From assembly GCA_020629435.1 (NCBI GenBank), contig JAHDDI010000007.1:1-40893 (forward strand): a stretch of DNA of 40,893 bases. Reading direction: 5' to 3'. This DNA comes from Minisyncoccota bacterium. Lineage in GTDB: Bacteria; Patescibacteriota; Minisyncoccia; Phycocordibacterales; GCA-2747955. Shown here in pieces: positions 2,878 to 40,893 of this stretch. The translations under genes and the position numbers were made by a program. How positions within the stretch are numbered: position 1 is the stretch's first letter; every line of letters starts with the position of its first letter. Below the pieces are notes generated by a model that did not search any database, was not told the DNA's origin, and saw nothing but the letters and a program-made list of their open reading frames with translations.

Positions 2878-3453
2878 ATGAATAAAAAAATACTAATTAC
2901 TGTTATTTTTGCAGCACTAGCAGCGGTTGCGTCGTATCTTATTTTAACAAATGAGTCGACTGTGAATGCAAATGATGAACAGATTCAAGCTGCCGGAGAT
3001 ACAGAGTCAGTAAACAATGGCGCTGCTGACGAACCAGCAAATGAAGAAACAGACAATTCTGATGACAGTGGAACTTCAAATGAAGTGTCAACTGAAATAA
3101 GAGAAGAAGAAATAACAGAAAATGTTAATGATGTTGTGACTGCGCAACTTGATTACAAAGACGGGACGTACACCACAGAAGAAACTTATGCATTACCAAA
3201 TGGCGGATCACACCACATGGACATTACTATGGTTATCGAAAACGATACAGTAACAGATGTAAGGATGGTGTTTGACGGTGACGTGTCTGGAGGGTCAACA
3301 GCAATTCAAGAACGATTTACAACTGCTATGCAGCCTATGGTTGTTGGGGCAAACCTTGACTCGATTTCACTTTCTCGAACAGGGGGAGCGTCATTGACTA
3401 CAGCTGGATTTAACAAGGCACTAGCTGAAATTAAAGTTAAAGCACAGATATAA
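2878..3453 (+). CDS. membrane-anchored FMN-binding domain protein (NqrC/RnfG-like, predicted ApbE substrate)
   Basis: N-terminal signal anchor (MNKKILITVIFAALAAVASYLIL) and an acidic linker. The C-terminal domain DGTYTTEE...ITMVIENDTVTDVRMV...DSISLSRTGGASLTTAGFNKALAEI matches the FMN_bind architecture. It carries a degenerate [ST]GA[ST] flavinylation motif (TGGAS, nt 3379-3393). Confidence 0.7.
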   Translation: MNKKILITVIFAALAAVASYLILTNESTVNANDEQIQAAGDTESVNNGAADEPANEETDNSDDSGTSNEVSTEIREEEITENVNDVVTAQLDYKDGTYTTEETYALPNGGSHHMDITMVIENDTVTDVRMVFDGDVSGGSTAIQERFTTAMQPMVVGANLDSISLSRTGGASLTTAGFNKALAEIKVKAQI

Positions 3454-4259
3454 TGATATCTGTCGGTCCAATTGAAAAACTCGGTACCGTTTGGTGGTTC
3501 GAGTTTTTTGATTTACCTGAAGAAAAACTGCAAGAAGTAAGCAGTGAAATCACCAAGACAATGACACAGTTTGAGAATGATTATTCTCGATTTAAACCTG
3601 ATTCTGTATTGTCGCAGTTAAACAAAAATAAAATATACCTAAATCCGAATGCCGAATTTTTGGCAATGATACAGTGGGCGGTTGATGCATATGGCCAGAC
3701 ACAAGGGGTATTTAATATTGCGGTAGGTGACTATTTAGTAAAATCAGGATACGACCAAGACTATTCTTTTCAGTCACAAGAAACCATGCTCATACCACGA
3801 TTAGATAGTGTTCTGCAGTATGATCAAAAAACAATACGACTATTGCCTGACACGCAGATAGATTTTGGCGGATTGGGCAAGGGGTACTTGATAGACAAGT
3901 TAGCTGGAATACTGAAAGACCAATTTGGTCTGCAATATTATTTAATCAATGGTGGTGGTGACATGTATGTAACAAGTGACCACGGAGAACCAATAGAGAT
4001 TGGACTACAAGACCCAGAAACAAAACAGATTATCGGGAAGACCAAATTACATAATCAAGCATTTGCGTCTTCGTCTCCAATCTTGCGACAATGGGCCGAC
4101 CAACAGGGGGATTTGCATAGTCATTTGGTTGGTGATGGAGACAAACAAACAGTGTATCTGACTGCTCCCAATGCAACACATGCGGATATTTGGGCAACGA
4201 CTTTGGCGATTGATGGCGGCATCACTACGCCAAGTTCAATAGCAATTATTACCCAATAA
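3453..4259 (+). CDS. apbE: FAD:protein FMN transferase (ApbE family), no signal peptide
   Basis: ApbE-family motifs present: DFGGLGKGYLIDK, INGGGDMYV, AFASSSP, HSHLVGDG and ADIWATTLAI. The start ATG overlaps the upstream stop (TAATG). The N-terminus MISVGPIEKLGTVWWFEFF runs directly into the catalytic domain, with no hydrophobic signal or lipobox. Confidence 0.85.
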   Translation: MISVGPIEKLGTVWWFEFFDLPEEKLQEVSSEITKTMTQFENDYSRFKPDSVLSQLNKNKIYLNPNAEFLAMIQWAVDAYGQTQGVFNIAVGDYLVKSGYDQDYSFQSQETMLIPRLDSVLQYDQKTIRLLPDTQIDFGGLGKGYLIDKLAGILKDQFGLQYYLINGGGDMYVTSDHGEPIEIGLQDPETKQIIGKTKLHNQAFASSSPILRQWADQQGDLHSHLVGDGDKQTVYLTAPNATHADIWATTLAIDGGITTPSSIAIITQ

Positions 4260-4269
4260 GTAAATATAT

Positions 4270-4278
4270 TGGTATAGT
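4270..4278 (+). promoter_or_regulatory. extended -10 promoter TGgTATAGT for the orphan gene at 4316
   Basis: TGnTATAGT at 4270-4278. It is followed by a 37-nt leader carrying a strong SD, GGGGAGG (4304-4310), 5 nt before ATG 4316. Confidence 0.5.
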
Positions 4279-4315
4279 ATCTTTGAGTGTAAAATGAATC
4301 ACTGGGGAGGTGACA

Positions 4316-4852
4316 ATGCGTTATATCGATGGCTATCTAGTGATAGCAAAATTACAGAATATGATTCCATATCTTATGTACGGTGCGCCTGAGGTTGAAC
4401 ATAATGAGCCGACAGAGCAGTTCTTGCTCAATGGATTAAAGCCCCTGAATGATACTGAGCAGGTTAGTAGGGGTATGCGATTCTTAGAGGCAAATGATCA
4501 AGTAGAGTCGATAGGTGTTATGCAATTCAAGATGTCTCTTGCAGAGAGCATCGATGAAATTGATTCTCTGCCTCTACATGCCACCAGCGTGTTTGTGTCT
4601 CGTTTTGAGCAAGATGACTGGCAACACTACAAGATATTTGGACCCAGGAATCCAAAAAGCACGTTGGGATTTGATGGTCGATCTGAAATAACTTGTAACG
4701 GATTCGAACTATACGGTCCGGCGACAACCAATCCAAACAATAGATGTTTCTGGGATATGTCAGAACTTAAACGACAATCACGAGATGATAATGTATGGGT
4801 AGCAAGTTGGGAGCACAAATGGGTCCAAGTTGAGACACCAATCAAAACATGA
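4316..4852 (+). CDS. hypothetical soluble protein (orphan)
   Basis: 178 aa with no TM segment and no motif I recognise. ATG 4316 is preferred over the track start GTG 4310 because of the GGGGAGG SD at 4304-4310. Ends in TGA, which is rare in this window. Confidence 0.5.
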   Translation: MRYIDGYLVIAKLQNMIPYLMYGAPEVEHNEPTEQFLLNGLKPLNDTEQVSRGMRFLEANDQVESIGVMQFKMSLAESIDEIDSLPLHATSVFVSRFEQDDWQHYKIFGPRNPKSTLGFDGRSEITCNGFELYGPATTNPNNRCFWDMSELKRQSRDDNVWVASWEHKWVQVETPIKT

Positions 4853-4879
4853 AAAACACATGTGGAGGTTGGTGTTTTT
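4852..4879 (+). terminator. weak candidate rho-independent terminator
   Basis: aaaaacac (4852-4859) pairs with gtgttttt (4872-4879) around a 12-nt loop. The stem is AT-rich. Confidence 0.35.
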
Positions 4880-4896
4880 CTCTTATCGTCATACCA

Positions 4897-4905
4897 TGTT
4901 AAAGT
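4897..4905 (+). promoter_or_regulatory. candidate extended -10 TGtTAAAGT, 8 nt before ATG 4914
   Basis: TG at 4897-4898 and TAAAGT at 4900-4905. No SD motif. Confidence 0.4.
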
Positions 4906-4913
4906 AAGTTATT

Positions 4914-5732
4914 ATGGATATACAAACAATTATTGATTTTATTGGTACAAAAGCATTGGAATTGGCGCCGCAACTGGCTGGCGCACTACTAGTTTTGGTC
5001 TTGGGATGGATTGGAACTGGGTGGATAGTAAAGGCACTGAAGCGTTTGTTCAAAAGAACTGATTTTGACGAAGCGCTAGAGACATTTATTGTGAGTCTGA
5101 CAGGAATTGCGTTGAAAATTATTTTAATTGTTATTGTGGTCGGTATGTTGGGAGTACAAACCAGTTCACTGGTGGCGCTGTTGGGTGCAATGGGACTGGC
5201 AATTGGTTTGGCACTGCAGGGAAGCCTGTCGAACTTTGCTGGTGGTGTGTTGATACTTGTGTTCAAACCATTCAAGGTCGGTGATTTAATCCAAACAGAT
5301 TCGGGTTATAAAGGGACAGTGCAGGAGATTCAAATATTCAATACTATCTTAGTAAGTGCAACAAAAGAAACTATTGTGGTACCAAATGGTAATCTGTCTA
5401 ATAACCCATTGGTCAATATTACGGGTTCTCCAGAAATGGGCATCGAGTACACTTTTGGTATTGGCTACGAAGACGATATTGATACTGCAAAAGAAATAAT
5501 CAGAACTATTTTGGACGAAAATAAAAATATTTTGACCGACGCTGGATACAAATTAGGAGTCCGAGAATTGGCAGATAACAGCGTTAATTTTTATGTGCGT
5601 GCAACAGTGCTGGCAGATAATTATTGGGACGCATTGTTTGAAATAACGGAAACAGTTAAAAAGACATTTGATGCACAAGGAATTTCAATTCCATACCCAC
5701 AACGGGATGTTCATATTATCGAAAACAAATAG
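4914..5732 (+). CDS. mscS: small-conductance mechanosensitive channel (MscS family)
   Basis: Three N-terminal TM segments. The pore-helix/beta-domain signature LGAMGLAIGLALQGSLSNFAGGVLILVFKPFKVGDLI...VQEIQIFNTIL is typical of MscS. Confidence 0.85.
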   Translation: MDIQTIIDFIGTKALELAPQLAGALLVLVLGWIGTGWIVKALKRLFKRTDFDEALETFIVSLTGIALKIILIVIVVGMLGVQTSSLVALLGAMGLAIGLALQGSLSNFAGGVLILVFKPFKVGDLIQTDSGYKGTVQEIQIFNTILVSATKETIVVPNGNLSNNPLVNITGSPEMGIEYTFGIGYEDDIDTAKEIIRTILDENKNILTDAGYKLGVRELADNSVNFYVRATVLADNYWDALFEITETVKKTFDAQGISIPYPQRDVHIIENK

Positions 5733-37196: not shown

Positions 37197-37943
37197 ATGG
37201 CAAAACAAGACGAAAACTCACAGGGAATTACAGTAAAATTAAAACCAGATACATTAGGATATATCGGTGATATTCCCATTACTAATTCATTAACGTCATC
37301 ATTGTTGGGAAGTATTATTTTGATTGTATTGTTACTATTGGTTTCGGCTCGACTAAAAATGATTCCAGGAAAAGTACAGTCACTGTTTGAATTAGTAGTT
37401 GAAAAAGGTTATGCATTTACACTGGAAACATTGGACGGTAATGAAAAAGTAGCGCGCAAAGTATTTCCACTTATTGCGTCTTTGTTTGTTTTTATTCTTT
37501 TCTTTAACTTAATCAAATTCATTCCTGGTTACGAAAGTACATTTTTTGGTGACTACCATTTGTTAAAACCATTGCACGCTGACCTGAACATGACGTTGGC
37601 TTTGGGTATTACTGCGTTCATTGCAATCCAAATTGCAGGGGTCGCTGTATTAGGTTTTTGGAAATATGGTTCAAAATTCATTAACATCAAAAAGCCGCTG
37701 ACTATTCCAATCGGTTTAATCGAATTGATTGCCGAAGTGGCCAAACTATTCTCACTATCATTACGATTATTTATTAATATCTTTGTTGGTGGAGTATTGT
37801 TGTTGTTGGTTAATTCGTTATCGCACTTTGTTTTGCCAGTTCCAATTTTATTGTTCGAGATTTTCATTGCATTTTTACAGGCCGGAGTATTTGCGCTACT
37901 GACACTGATGTACGTTAAACTGGCTACTGATGAACCTCATTAG
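37197..37943 (+). CDS. atpB: F0F1 ATP synthase subunit a
   Basis: The conserved Arg helix LFSLSLRLFINIFVGGVLL and the C-terminal FLQAGVFALLTLMY are typical of subunit a. Confidence 0.9.
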   Translation: MAKQDENSQGITVKLKPDTLGYIGDIPITNSLTSSLLGSIILIVLLLLVSARLKMIPGKVQSLFELVVEKGYAFTLETLDGNEKVARKVFPLIASLFVFILFFNLIKFIPGYESTFFGDYHLLKPLHADLNMTLALGITAFIAIQIAGVAVLGFWKYGSKFINIKKPLTIPIGLIELIAEVAKLFSLSLRLFINIFVGGVLLLLVNSLSHFVLPVPILLFEIFIAFLQAGVFALLTLMYVKLATDEPH

Positions 37944-37968
37944 TACAATTTTGAGTATTATACCTGTA

Positions 37969-37977
37969 TGGTATAAT
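37969..37977 (+). promoter_or_regulatory. internal extended -10 promoter TGgTATAAT between atpB and atpE
   Basis: Perfect TGnTATAAT. The ORF-track start ATG 37976 lies inside it, so atpE is started at ATG 38012. Confidence 0.55.
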
Positions 37978-38011
37978 GCTCGCATATTATTATCATATTT
38001 ATAAAACTTGT

Positions 38012-38215
38012 ATGGAAGCATTAGCTAAAGCATTAATTGTAGGAATCGGAGTACTAGGACCTGCTATCGGAGTAGCGATGGTGTTCTCAAAAGGTCTAGA
38101 AGGAATCGCACGTAACCCAGAAGCAGCAAACAAAATTACACCATTGATTTTCGTTGGAGCAGGACTTGTCGAAGTATTGGGACTGGCAACAATCGCATTG
38201 TTCTTCTTGGTATAA
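38012..38215 (+). CDS. atpE: F0F1 ATP synthase subunit c
   Basis: 67-aa hairpin: GIGVLGPAIGVAMVF...ARNPEA...FVGAGLVEVLGLATIALFF, with the ion-binding Glu in helix 2. Confidence 0.88.
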   Translation: MEALAKALIVGIGVLGPAIGVAMVFSKGLEGIARNPEAANKITPLIFVGAGLVEVLGLATIALFFLV

Positions 38216-38240
38216 TTTATTGATTAATCTTTTCTGATTT

Positions 38241-38684
38241 ATGGATGTAATTATTGAAAAATTTGGAATTGACCCTGCGTTGATTGCCGCTGAGACAGTT
38301 AACTTTTTAATTGTAGTAGGTATTTTGTATTACTTTGTATTTAGAAAAGTAGGCGCTATGCTAGATGAGCGTAAAAAAGTCATCGAAGACGGAGTAGCAA
38401 ATGCTGAACAAGCAGAATCCAAGCTAACAGAAGCAGAAGCAGAAAAACAAACTATTCTGCACGCAGCGGGCGAAGAAGCAACAGCAGAAATAAAAGCCGC
38501 AGTTGAAACTGCAAAATTACGAGAAGCACAGATAGTAGGAGACGCAAACACTCAGGCAACAACTATCATTGAAAATGCAAATCACAAAGGAGAAGAGATG
38601 AAACAAAAAATCGTTGAATCATCAAAAGAAGATATCGCAAAAATGATAGTCCTGGGAGCAGAAAAAACGCTTGCAGCTAAATAA
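38241..38684 (+). CDS. atpF: F0F1 ATP synthase subunit b
   Basis: Single N-terminal TM segment (ETVNFLIVVGILYYFVF), then a long Ala/Glu/Lys-rich helix (LDERKKVIEDGVANAEQAE...). Confidence 0.8.
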   Translation: MDVIIEKFGIDPALIAAETVNFLIVVGILYYFVFRKVGAMLDERKKVIEDGVANAEQAESKLTEAEAEKQTILHAAGEEATAEIKAAVETAKLREAQIVGDANTQATTIIENANHKGEEMKQKIVESSKEDIAKMIVLGAEKTLAAK

Positions 38685-38690
38685 ACAAAA

Positions 38691-38716
38691 AACACCCAAA
38701 ACCTGGGTGTTTTTTG
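38691..38716 (+). terminator. rho-independent terminator directly after atpF
   Basis: aacaccca (38691-38698), loop aaacc, tgggtgtt (38704-38711), then tttt. Confidence 0.75.
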
Positions 38717-38786
38717 TTATCACAAAGCAGAAAATATACAAATCAATGTCCCTTGCAGGTAAATATTATAGGCGTAAAATAATTTT

Positions 38787-39671
38787 ATGAAATTTTCTTA
38801 TTTGTTTTTTATAGGAGTATTGGTTGTACTACCAACATCATTTCTATTGGCGCAGGATCAAAATAATAATACTGCTGATACAAAAAATGTTATCGACTAT
38901 GTGTCTGATGAAATTTCGGTGTCACTTCCGTTGTCTGGAATAACAAATGATCCTATTGTTGTGCCAAGCGACAATGATGATGATTTATTGAACAGAAGTT
39001 TTAATACAATTACACCGTTCAATTTTGTAGCATATTTTGTCTCACTTATGGTAACAGCAGGACTGTCAGTAGAGACAATCGTTTTAACATTACTAATTCC
39101 AATTTTGGCAACAATAATTACCTTTACACGTAATATTATTGGACTCCCTAGTATGGACACCTTGGTGATAATTTCTTTTTCGATTGCCCTTGTAGCATCA
39201 AATATCCTCATTGGGTCAATATTGCTTGTGGTGACATTGGTATCTTCTGTGGTTGCTCGGTCACTGTTCAAGAGAATAAAAATAATGCAGCTACCAAAAG
39301 TAACGTTATCGATGTTTTTTGTAACAGTCTCTGTGCTGTCTGTGTTGGGGTTGATTGCATTGACTGACGGTATGGCGGTTCAGTCAATTTCGGTTGTACC
39401 TGTGTTGTTGTTTATAATTATGTCAGAACGTATCGTACGACTGCAATTTGATTCTAATCCCAACTATGCGTGGATGACAGTGTTGGTTACACTGGTTATT
39501 GGAACAACTGGATATTATATTATGTTGTCAGAAAACATTCGTCAGTTTTTAATTAATTATCCAGAAACAGTGTTCTTGGTAATTCCGATTAATTATTTTA
39601 TTGGAAGATATTTTGGTCTGCGATTAATGGAAAAAGTACGCTTTTCTGACTTATTGTCTCGAAAAAAATAA
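38787..39671 (+). CDS. 7-TM membrane protein related to the 7TM module of 7TM-transglutaminase proteins (no transglutaminase domain)
   Basis: Signal peptide, an ~70-aa extracytoplasmic region, then about 7 TM segments. The first TM region, LLIPILATIITFTRNIIGLPSMDTLVIISFSIAL, resembles the conserved R..(I/V)G(L/I) start of the 7TM_transglut module. The stop lies 1 nt before the ATP-grasp ATG. Confidence 0.5.
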   Translation: MKFSYLFFIGVLVVLPTSFLLAQDQNNNTADTKNVIDYVSDEISVSLPLSGITNDPIVVPSDNDDDLLNRSFNTITPFNFVAYFVSLMVTAGLSVETIVLTLLIPILATIITFTRNIIGLPSMDTLVIISFSIALVASNILIGSILLVVTLVSSVVARSLFKRIKIMQLPKVTLSMFFVTVSVLSVLGLIALTDGMAVQSISVVPVLLFIIMSERIVRLQFDSNPNYAWMTVLVTLVIGTTGYYIMLSENIRQFLINYPETVFLVIPINYFIGRYFGLRLMEKVRFSDLLSRKK

Positions 39672-39672
39672 T

Positions 39673-40893
39673 ATGAAAATCGAACCCTTGGGAATGAATG
39701 CTCGAAATTTCTTGTATATTCTCCCGTACAACAAAGTCCGCGCCAAAGCCAGAGCAGATGATAAATTAGCAACCAAAAAAATTTTATTAAAGAAAAAAAT
39801 TGCCACTCCGCATTTGATAGCGTCGTTTAATAATACCCATGATGCGCGAGTATTTGATTGGCACACACTACCAAAATCTTTTGTCGTAAAACCTGCGCGT
39901 GGTTATGGAGGTGGGGGAATTTTATTGATCAAAAAATGGAATGGTACCAGCGGTGTTACCCAAGACGGAGAAGAAATTACTGTACCAGAGATCGAAACAC
40001 ATGTTTTTGATATCACTATGGGTGTATTTTCATTAGGGTCAACCAAAGACCTTGCGTTTATTGAAGAGAGAATTATTCCAATGAAATTTTTCAAGAAAAT
40101 TCCAATTTTAGGTATTCCTGATATTAGGGTTATTGTGTTTGCCGGAGTGCCTGTTATGGCTATGATGCGAATTCCATCTGAACAATCTGACGGAAAGGCA
40201 AATCTAACTGTAGGTGCTGTTGGTGTGGGGATTGATATTTCAACAGGGGTTACGACATATGGATGGCAAAAGGGTTACACTGTTCGTCTGTTTCCAGGCA
40301 CTCGAATCAAGATGCGGGGTATTAAAATTCCTATGTGGGATGAAGTATTGGACCAAGCGGTTCGCGCACAACATGTCAGCAAATTAGGGTTTGCGGGGAT
40401 TGATATTATTTTAGATAAAAACAAGGGACCATTAGTCATTGAAATTAATGCTCGGCCCGGACTGTCCATTCAATCAGTCAATCAAGCATCATTACTGGAA
40501 CGTTTAAAACGTGTAGAAAATATTAAACCCAAGCCAGAATTAGAACGGGGAATCGAAATCGGTAAAACGTTGTTTACCGAAGAATTTTCGACAAAGGTGA
40601 CCCGTAAAAATAACATTATTGGTGTTTTTGAAAAAATTGGAATAAACAATGGAAAAAACAAAAAAGATTTTCAAATAATTGCCAAGATAGACACTGGGGC
40701 ATACAGAACATCTATCGATAGAGAGCTTGCCGAACAATTACAATTAATTAGGCACGATAGAATTGTAAAGGTGCGCGCCGCATCAGGACAGCAGGACCGA
40801 GAAATGGTAAACATAACGTTGAATATTGCAGGTAAAAAAATAGAAACAACTGCATCTGTAACTGACAGAAATGACCTGCGGCATCAAATTATT
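39673..40893 (+). CDS. alpha-L-glutamate-ligase-like ATP-grasp enzyme fused to a retropepsin-like (DTG) peptidase domain; 3' end outside the window
   Basis: Absent from the ORF track because no stop falls in the window; I translated 407 codons by hand with no stop. The N-terminus GMNARNFLYILPYNKVRAKARADDKLATKKILL, together with SFVVKPARGYGGGGILLI, IPDIRVIVF, SDGKANLTVGAVGVGID, AGIDIILD...LVIEINARPGLS, matches the RimK-related ATP-grasp pattern. The C-terminal FQIIAKIDTGAYRTSIDRELA (DTG at 40690-40698) matches the RimK-associated aspartyl peptidase (Zn_protease family). Confidence 0.8.
   Translation, partial: MKIEPLGMNARNFLYILPYNKVRAKARADDKLATKKILLKKKIATPHLIASFNNTHDARVFDWHTLPKSFVVKPARGYGGGGILLIKKWNGTSGVTQDGEEITVPEIETHVFDITMGVFSLGSTKDLAFIEERIIPMKFFKKIPILGIPDIRVIVFAGVPVMAMMRIPSEQSDGKANLTVGAVGVGIDISTGVTTYGWQKGYTVRLFPGTRIKMRGIKIPMWDEVLDQAVRAQHVSKLGFAGIDIILDKNKGPLVIEINARPGLSIQSVNQASLLERLKRVENIKPKPELERGIEIGKTLFTEEFSTKVTRKNNIIGVFEKIGINNGKNKKDFQIIAKIDTGAYRTSIDRELAEQLQLIRHDRIVKVRAASGQQDREMVNITLNIAGKKIETTASVTDRNDLRHQII

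Follow-up and report, generated by a model that had tools for sequence, protein, structure and literature searches.

The final two genes of a Minisyncoccota bacterium contig (JAHDDI010000007.1, assembly GCA_020629435.1) make up a two-gene form of a known system related to RloABC, and not a new kind of system. The contig is 40,893 bp long and was analysed as a whole; it is called the window here, and the window is the whole public contig. The first gene, ORF A (38787..39671, forward strand, 294 aa), encodes a seven-transmembrane (7TM) protein, and the second, ORF B (forward strand, from 39673), encodes an ATP-grasp ligase fused to a retropepsin-like protease. We lean towards the reading that the pair may work docked at the membrane, synthesising and trimming an acidic chain, probably of alpha-polyglutamate. 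An earlier note on this DNA had remarked on the ligase-protease fusion; it is not particular to this genome but the standard architecture in Patescibacteria, and the form of all the best 120 protein clusters. The features of the module and of the segment in front of it are:

38684..38718, +: intrinsic-terminator-like hairpin and U-run, directly after the atpF stop (RNA fold)
38787..39671, +: 7TM protein, 294 aa (PF14402, partial NF052267 match)
38793..39008, +: signal-like segment and acidic linker of the 7TM protein (hydropathy, charge count)
39600..39644, +: basic C-terminal motif IGRYFGLRLMEKVRF of the 7TM protein (conservation in 38 homologues)
39673..40893, +: ligase-retropepsin fusion, 407 aa visible, no signal peptide (TIGR02291, PF14397, homologues)
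39688..40557, +: ATP-grasp ligase domain, aa 6-295 (TIGR02291, PF14397)
40612..40893, +: predicted retropepsin (clan AA) domain, ended by the contig edge (PDB profile and fold searches)
40690..40701, +: predicted catalytic D-T-G-A, aa 340-343 (invariant columns)

ORF A ends with the stop TAA at 39669-39671, and a T at 39672 is the 1 nt spacer before the ATG of ORF B at 39673. The reading frame of ORF B is open for 407 codons, up to the final base of the window, as had been read before from the letters. Because the window is the entire public contig, the truncation of ORF B is an assembly end and not biology, and no extension is possible. An identical 7TM protein (P0121, 100% identity) is found on just one further contig, which is 2.7 kb long and stops earlier. 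The closest full-length homologues of ORF B are P0001 (432 aa, 79% identity) and P0002 (437 aa, 70%), from which we estimate that about 25-30 aa of ORF B are unseen.

RloABC is encoded by a Pseudomonas aeruginosa operon that was named by Lormand et al. (mBio 2025, PMC12239564). The RloA proteins are secreted retropepsins that cleave runs of at least 8 Glu; K46, R114, and R137 of RloA line the cleft, and R114 and R137 bind polyglutamate. RloB is a 7TM protein that also carries an inactive transglutaminase domain, and RloC is an ATP-grasp protein whose product was reported as unknown. The triple protease mutant is lethal in low-salt medium and is rescued by deletion of rloB or rloC, and glutamate or polyglutamate homeostasis was suggested as a possibility. 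The distribution of RloB was reported as 96% Proteobacteria (PMC12239564). The earlier statement that neither product nor function had been established for such systems thus stands for the product of RloC, and no longer for the function, which is now that of RloABC with its polyglutamate protease. In a sister system, the cytoplasmic protease RimB, which like RloA needs runs of at least 8 Glu, cleaves polyglutamate tails and has a stimulating effect on RimK in the synthesis of poly-alpha-glutamate, and a natural RimB-RimK hybrid (RimBK), with the protease at the N-terminus, is proteolytically active (Little et al., JBC 2025, PMC11957791).

Residues 6-295 of ORF B match TIGR02291 (alpha-L-glutamate ligase-like; 271.8 bits, E=6.5e-81), and residues 11-283 match Pfam PF14397 (ATPgrasp_ST; 222.6 bits, threshold 31.4, E=7.6e-66, profile positions 2-278 of 278), which bears out the ATP-grasp identity proposed earlier. 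The N-terminal motif that was quoted for it, LGMNARNFLYILPYNKVRAKARADDKLATKK, is also confirmed. Two alignments, one of 18 and one of 52 sequences, show no variation at K73, E131, D244, E257, N259, and R261; we take these to be the ATP/Mg-binding ATP-grasp residues. The RimK family model TIGR00768 gives 62.5 bits for ORF B and does not reach its cutoff of 143.4, and the window-type ligases score 50-72 bits with the RimK-family model vs 261-272 with TIGR02291. By these profile scores, we predict that the ORF B ligase is RloC-type and not RimK-type. Among PDB structures, an AlphaFold2 (AF2) model of P0001 (pLDDT 89.6) is most similar to RimK (5zct, 9.7e-12); it also matches LysX/ArgX and Ddl. 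Cyanophycin synthetase is among the distant ATP-grasp matches of the ligase in both sequence and fold searches. Within the top 50 matches listed, the fold search with the full-length P0001 model gave only ATP-grasp proteins, so a separate model of the retropepsin domain was needed.

The protease portion of ORF B starts at approximately aa 314 and carries K-I-D-T-G-A; the segment IIAKIDTGAYRTSID at aa 335-349 contains DTGA. In the truncated window copy the peptidase region has only sub-threshold matches (gag-asp_proteas, 26.8 vs 28.2; PF05618, 19.4 vs 27), so full-length homologues were used for the protease assignment. With PF05618 (Zn_protease / RimB-like; threshold 27), P0001 scores 26.9, P0002 20.3, P0263 37.3, and P0270 33.4. 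Thus, of the models that the earlier note had named, the TIGR02291-like and PF14402 models match, and PF05618 falls short on the window copy. The NCBIfam RloA3 model gives 21-34 bits, far under its cutoff of 210. A profile of the C-terminal domain searched against the PDB finds RloA2 (9g59, 1.1e-7), RloA (9g58, 2e-6), and Legionella Lpg0085 (2pma, 3.9e-6), with Ddi1 and the protease of a retrovirus next. When the retropepsin domain was modelled by itself (pLDDT 89.1), the top fold match was RloA 9g58 (3.3e-7), then 2pma and 9g59, and later Ddi1 and the proteases of HIV-1, equine infectious anaemia virus (EIAV), and feline immunodeficiency virus (FIV). Both searches returned aspartic proteases only. 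With RloA proteins first in both the profile and the fold searches and DTGA at aa 340-343, the retropepsin identity suggested earlier is upheld: as modelled, the C-terminal domain is a clan AA retropepsin with an intact DTGA site.

In the same two alignments K338, D340, G342, A343, R376, and R399 are invariant, and T341 is nearly so. A conserved IIGR follows DTGA (aa 407-410 in P0001); the window ends after the II, before G-R. An alignment of hidden Markov models (HMMs) pairs K338, R376, and R399 with K24, R94, and R117 of RloA2 (9g59), and the spacing of 23 between R376 and R399 equals that of R114 and R137 in RloA. The conserved basic residues are consistent with an acidic, polyglutamate-like substrate. 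The retropepsin has no signal peptide of its own and lies C-terminal to a signal-less ATP-grasp domain; because it is fused in this way to an ATP-dependent ligase and has no signal peptide, the protease is predicted to be cytoplasmic, a consequence that the earlier note did not mention. The inter-domain segment ERGIEIGKTLFTEEFSTKV is conserved and is modelled as helices (around residues 290-308), with a mean pLDDT of about 90 and a dip to 68 over residues 301-310. It contains no acidic run of the length that RloA and RimB need.

Some variation was seen around this domain in other genomes. A strongly acidic C-terminal tail (net charge -4 or lower, e.g. GADDDDDDDTDSEEDEQ) follows GF[LI][VI]xP in 43 of 114 fused homologues, among them P0013, P0010, P0022, and P0038. 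None was found in P0001-P0009, the nearest relatives of the window. Such tails might serve to prime synthesis or to mimic the substrate, but the idea that every fusion has one built in for this purpose was rejected, as they are limited to those 43 proteins and missing from these nearest relatives. In Moranbacteria-type loci, including L032, L035, and L037, the match of the protease HMM is split by an insertion of about 25-40 aa (in L032, 4933-5086 and 5164-5353) that resembles the longer RloA/RimB form. P0234, a metagenomic protein of 539 aa, has a class I lysyl-tRNA synthetase domain (PF01921, 2e-84) followed by the same retropepsin subtype at aa 396-516, and could be a true fusion or a gene-calling join.

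ORF A matches the Pfam family 7TM_transglut (PF14402; 58.3 bits, gathering threshold 25, E=1e-15) over aa 100-289, profile positions 58-247 of 248, and PF14402 is present in all 70 of 70 homologues of ORF A (about 280-320 aa). The NCBIfam RloB model NF052267 gives 46.4 bits (cutoff 900) and matches solely over its C-terminal positions 311-506 of 508, so ORF A lacks the transglutaminase domain, in agreement with what had been noted before. By these matches, ORF A is a homologue of the membrane half of RloB. Its N-terminus has a signal-like hydrophobic segment (aa 3-21) and then an acidic linker of 53 aa (aa 22-74; 10 D/E vs 2 K/R), which is predicted to be extracellular and to take the place of the RloB transglutaminase domain. 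Most 7TM homologues show one anchor plus seven spans by hydropathy.

The N-termini of 7TM partners differ among loci of the Candidate Phyla Radiation (CPR, Patescibacteria). Some proteins have none (about 215-250 aa), others have a short linker as in the window (about 270-335 aa), and a third type has a PKD domain and about 180 residues without a Pfam match (about 516-535 aa). The PKD domain (E = 1e-17 to 1e-19 in these 516-535 aa proteins) is found in L034 (2202-3752), L061 (1870-3417), L071 (2422-3981), L076 (2434-3984), and L086 (2407-4011). The transglutaminase Pfam model has no match in the N-termini of the CPR-locus 7TM partners examined. The sole strongly conserved soluble feature of the family is the basic C-terminal motif, with the consensus IGRYFGLRLxExxRF. 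Across 38 homologues G273, G277, R279, E282, and F286 are invariant, and R274, F276, L278, L280, and R285 are nearly so; the motif is also present in a 505-aa transglutaminase-fused member of this set. We infer that this basic tail is cytoplasmic and a candidate docking site for the ligase.

All of the best 120 protein clusters are full-length fusions of 420-458 aa, and the named homologues are nearly all from Patescibacteria. A scan of GTDB, with one genome per species, gave at least 574 candidate relatives; the best 80 were analysed and are also all full-length fusions. Complete chromosomes of 0.8-1.1 Mb carry the fusion (CP060229.1, OZ246419.1, and CP066686.1), OZ246419.1 being a chromosome of 810,692 bp. 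Most of the best-80 records are named as CPR. Many others are labelled as uncultured Gammaproteobacteria, Bdellovibrionales, or Pseudomonadales, and two are labelled as archaeal (L044, Bathyarchaeia; L046, Woesearchaeota). We suspect that the non-CPR labels of window-type fusions are placeholders or binning errors, as the few sequence sizes considered, such as that of OZ246419.1, suit small genomes of the CPR kind.

For synteny, HMMs built from the collected sequences were run against the best-80 GTDB loci. The 7TM gene is immediately upstream of the fusion and on the same strand in all 76 of the 76 loci with upstream DNA (the other four begin at a contig end and were excluded from the count), and the same adjacency occurs in L001-L006. 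The synteny of the 7TM gene and the ligase in related genomes, which the earlier note had proposed as a check, is therefore clear. The two genes mostly overlap or are less than 30 nt apart, with an overlap of 14 nt (spacing -14 nt) in 17 loci. The 7TM gene and the fusion form a self-contained module, the translation of which is probably coupled.

The genes further out are less constant. GCA_048538215.1, a close relative, has the identical order dnaG, rpoD, atpB, atpE, atpF, 7TM, fusion. The pair is found after secA in a Daviesbacteria genome, and a further lineage has a NIF3 gene beside it in divergent orientation. The hairpin between atpF and the 7TM gene in the window has a 15-bp stem followed by UUUUUUG (-20.2 kcal/mol, z = -5.2 vs shuffles); a simple terminator scan did not report it at 38684..38718. 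The F0 genes are incidental neighbours, since this terminator hairpin sets them apart from the pair and conservation does not extend to the genes further out. The weight once given to the position directly after the F0 genes is thus lost, and a functional link to the ATP synthase F0 was rejected on the same two grounds.

The protease domain also occurs in other fusion orders. A profile search of 1.84 billion cluster representatives gave 3364 matches at E<=1e-3 (658 at E<=1e-10), and the following architectures, besides fragments and window-type fusions, were read from the best 150 of the 3364:

P0268, P0270, P0273, P0278: hydrophobic anchor, protease, 7TM (about 19 representatives by length and match position)
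P0194: two tandem proteases, 7TM (a single-chain pseudo-dimer)
P0305 (657 aa), P0342 (672 aa): anchor, protease, 7TM, and ATP-grasp in one chain (metagenomic)
P0230 (798 aa), P0263 (800 aa, EKD49309.1): ATP-grasp, protease, MATCAP-type carboxypeptidase

These alternative fusions (protease-7TM, protease-7TM-ligase, and ligase-protease-carboxypeptidase) provide evidence of physical linkage for all three module pairs. The Rosetta-stone argument for a functional link between ligase and peptidase, which had been made from the window alone, is supported. In the triple fusion (P0305 and P0342) the layout is anchor, retropepsin (55-140), 7TM (177-359), and ATP-grasp (384-650); because all three Rlo-type modules share one polypeptide, it fixes their relative topology. 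The C-terminal domain of P0230 and P0263 is a MATCAP/DUF1704-type metallocarboxypeptidase (PF08014, E ~1e-41 to 1e-43), so a ligase, an endopeptidase, and an exopeptidase are united in a single protein. The public name of P0263, ketopantoate hydroxymethyltransferase, looks wrong. In two anchor-protease-7TM loci (L087, 5001-7323; L088, 5001-6984) a stand-alone PF14397 ligase gene encoding 287-288 aa overlaps the stop.

Most protease-7TM forms, including the triple fusion, have one anchor and seven spans by hydropathy, and with the ligase inside, the protease of the 7TM-fused and triple forms is predicted to be outside. The RloB transglutaminase domain and the secreted RloA are on this side too. 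Among the systems inspected, each with a single protease module, the side of the membrane predicted for that module varies by lineage. Neither Lormand et al. nor Little et al. (2025) mentions this inside/outside difference.

Additional ligase genes are common downstream. Of the 70 GTDB loci in which DNA downstream is available, 32 have between one and three more ATP-grasp genes after the fusion, and 29 of these start within 150 nt. They are RimK-like; the one at L048:5266-6138 passes the RimK-family model TIGR00768 (144.4 vs 143.4 bits). Examples are L048 (5266-7904), L065 (5374-7287, a tandem double ligase of 638 aa), L042 (5369-7197), L027 (6153-7073), and L070 (2981-4810), whose extra ligase has a weak, sub-threshold DUF3541 match in its C-terminal half (20.5 vs 28.2 bits). 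The extra RimK-like genes are not found in the nearest relatives of the window, so the window, with its own downstream region unseen, most likely holds the minimal two-gene form.

The module shares its parts with RloABC: a 7TM protein as the counterpart of RloB, an ATP-grasp of the TIGR02291/PF14397 type as that of RloC, and a DTG retropepsin as that of RloA, which belongs to the PF05618 lineage. The window-type protease, in which the polyglutamate-binding basic residues are conserved, finds the RloA and RloA2 structures, beside Legionella 2pma, among its best matches in the PDB. The module differs in having two genes and not three, and in a protease that is carried on the C-terminus of the ligase and predicted to be cytoplasmic, whereas RloA is secreted. 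The window 7TM protein does not have the inactive transglutaminase domain that RloB carries, the protease has approximately 30 aa fewer than RloA in the stretch from DTG to the first conserved Arg, the ligase scores under the TIGR02291 cutoff, and the host belongs to the Patescibacteria, whereas RloB is chiefly in Proteobacteria.

RimK/RimB is likewise an ATP-grasp glutamate ligase with a polyglutamate-cutting retropepsin, both cytoplasmic, and in this predicted location the window protease resembles RimB and not RloA. RimBK joins ligase and retropepsin in a natural single chain, so the ligase-protease Rosetta stone is already published for the sister system. The protease is N-terminal in RimBK, whereas the window fusion has ligase and then protease. 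The RimBK ligase is RimK proper, with ribosomal protein S6 as its target; a 7TM partner has not been reported for it, and the taxa are mainly Flavobacteriales, Rhodobacterales, and Desulfotalea. The ligase-then-protease order with a cytoplasmic protease appears to be undescribed, as do the 7TM-fused and triple-fused forms of this protease subtype and the additional RimK-family ligases at many Patescibacterial loci. Our search of a limited set of literature found no relevant description of the Patescibacterial variant; an earlier mention of such fusions in Iyer et al. 2009 is possible.

More distant parallels involve tail and polymer chemistry. In the tubulin tail cycle, ATP-grasp-type TTL/TTLL ligases add amino acids and CCP/MATCAP carboxypeptidases remove them. 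The window relatives P0230 and P0263, with MATCAP-family PF08014 after the retropepsin, resemble this by analogy only; the tubulin cycle is eukaryotic and cytoskeletal, and has no retropepsin or membrane partner. PgsBCA and cyanophycin synthetase/cyanophycinase, again by analogy only, pair ATP-dependent, non-ribosomal poly-amino-acid synthesis with a dedicated hydrolase, and Pgs is embedded in the membrane and exports its polymer. PgsB differs in being a Mur-ligase-type and not an ATP-grasp enzyme and in forming gamma linkages, and neither of these systems has a 7TM_transglut protein or a retropepsin.

In the mechanism that we favour, the ligase would be held at the membrane by the basic cytoplasmic tail of its 7TM partner and would consume ATP to join glutamate through alpha linkages into acidic chains, which may be free or attached to an acceptor. 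As a dimer, the retropepsin domain would cleave these chains and so control their length or turnover; a stimulating effect on the ligase, like that of RimB on RimK, is also conceivable. The 7TM protein may pass the product, or a signal of envelope state, across the membrane. The MATCAP fusions (P0230 and P0263) and the RimK-family ligases in 32 of 70 loci argue for peptide-tail or poly-amino-acid chemistry. If the proteases inside and outside act on the same substrate, it could be a chain that is threaded through the 7TM protein. A tentative extension, which we hold possible at best, is that the 7TM_transglut family is a translocase for a non-ribosomal acidic peptide polymer, that is, an unrecognised secretion route of which Patescibacteria keep a minimal core.

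Several observations weigh against a polyglutamate-making machine of the RloABC kind. The C-terminus of the window's own fusion is not visible. TIGR02291 is the best NCBIfam family for ORF B by about 200 bits, yet the score is under the curated cutoff of 314.2, as are those of full-length P0001, P0002, and P0046 (261-268 bits), so the NCBI rule does not establish equivalence to RloC. We know of no RloC-type ligase with an established biochemical product. PF14397 is named in Pfam as a sugar-transfer associated ATP-grasp. The hydropathy of the window 7TM protein is ambiguous, with 7-8 spans (8 peaks after the signal segment). As the side of the protease differs, one simple model of making inside and cutting outside cannot fit all forms.

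The cytoplasmic location predicted for the fused protease (C-terminal to an ATP-dependent domain, with no signal peptide) could also fit a glutamate-pool or osmolyte buffer, with the 7TM protein as a sensor of membrane tension or of the state of the envelope that switches the enzymes between polymerising and depolymerising glutamate in the cytoplasm, and with no export. The Rlo phenotype is a hypo-osmotic sensitivity, and the idea of homeostasis was raised by Lormand et al. (PMC12239564). A glutamate dehydrogenase gene (PF02812/PF00208; L087 7412-8695) adjoins the 3′ end of the stand-alone RloC-like ligase in L087, which fits glutamate as a substrate; this adjacency is a single case. We consider the buffer unlikely, as endopeptidases of the RloA type need about 8 Glu and would not regenerate monomers alone, and a cytoplasmic cycle leaves the same protease subtype outside the membrane in other lineages unexplained. 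The Pfam name of PF14397 points elsewhere, to modification of a surface polymer: the ATP-grasp would amidate a carboxylate of a glycopolymer precursor, the 7TM protein would flip or anchor the precursor, and the protease would process a protein partner. The module lies near FemAB, DegT, and Mur-ligase genes in L004, some 7TM partners have extracellular PKD domains, and loss of a RloB homologue in Shewanella changes membrane-vesicle production. Against this, the outer neighbours are not conserved and no glycosyltransferase is consistently linked, and the nearest characterised relatives found are alpha-L-glutamate ligases: RimK is best in the PDB sequence and fold searches, and the RimK family is the next NCBIfam match after the uncharacterised TIGR02291. 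As the protease also retains the polyglutamate-binding basic residues, we regard a role in surface polymers as rather improbable.

Retropepsins within polyproteins commonly auto-excise, and the order of enzyme then protease in ORF B resembles that of retroviral polyproteins, so the retropepsin might cut the fusion itself and release an active ligase or a free protease. The conserved, helical inter-domain segment, which has no acidic run of the length that RloA and RimB need, and the full-length fusion as the sole form among the best 120 clusters make such self-processing very unlikely. ORF B ends at a contig edge in a metagenome assembly, and a gene-calling, frameshift, or assembly error, or chance, was weighed for that reason. 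The same continuous frame of 420-458 aa is found in 120 clusters and 80 species-level genomes, including complete chromosomes, and with the synteny in 76 of 76 loci an artefact is refuted for practical purposes. Among these explanations, the membrane-docked ligase and protease acting on an acidic, polyglutamate-like chain is the one we retain.

The two-protein Patescibacterial form, with one soluble ligase-protease chain, could ease the in vitro search for the RloC product. It also raises the question of the membrane side on which cleavage takes place, and hence of the role of the 7TM protein. The radiation to which its hosts belong is very large and uncultivated, few of its envelope functions are annotated, and many of its lineages have the module.

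The other genes of the window are housekeeping genes of a small genome, including those for SerRS, Dus, RNase J, IF-2, RbfA, RecR, and DnaB, as well as RpoB, RpoC, DnaG, RpoD, and atpB/E/F. The tRNA and Rfam scans of the window gave zero matches, and the PADLOC defence models gave no meaningful match. The genes atpB, atpE, and atpF (F0 a, c, and b) are a unit at 37197-38684 with a terminator at its end and no F1 genes after it, so the F1 genes must be located elsewhere or be absent. In the relative L001 (F0 unit at 3394-5058) a DEAD helicase and a recombinase come next after the module. The window also encodes an MscS-type mechanosensitive channel (PF00924, PF21082; 4914-5732, forward strand), approximately 33 kb from the module; no linkage is implied, and the gene is of interest solely because the Rlo phenotype is a hypo-osmotic sensitivity.

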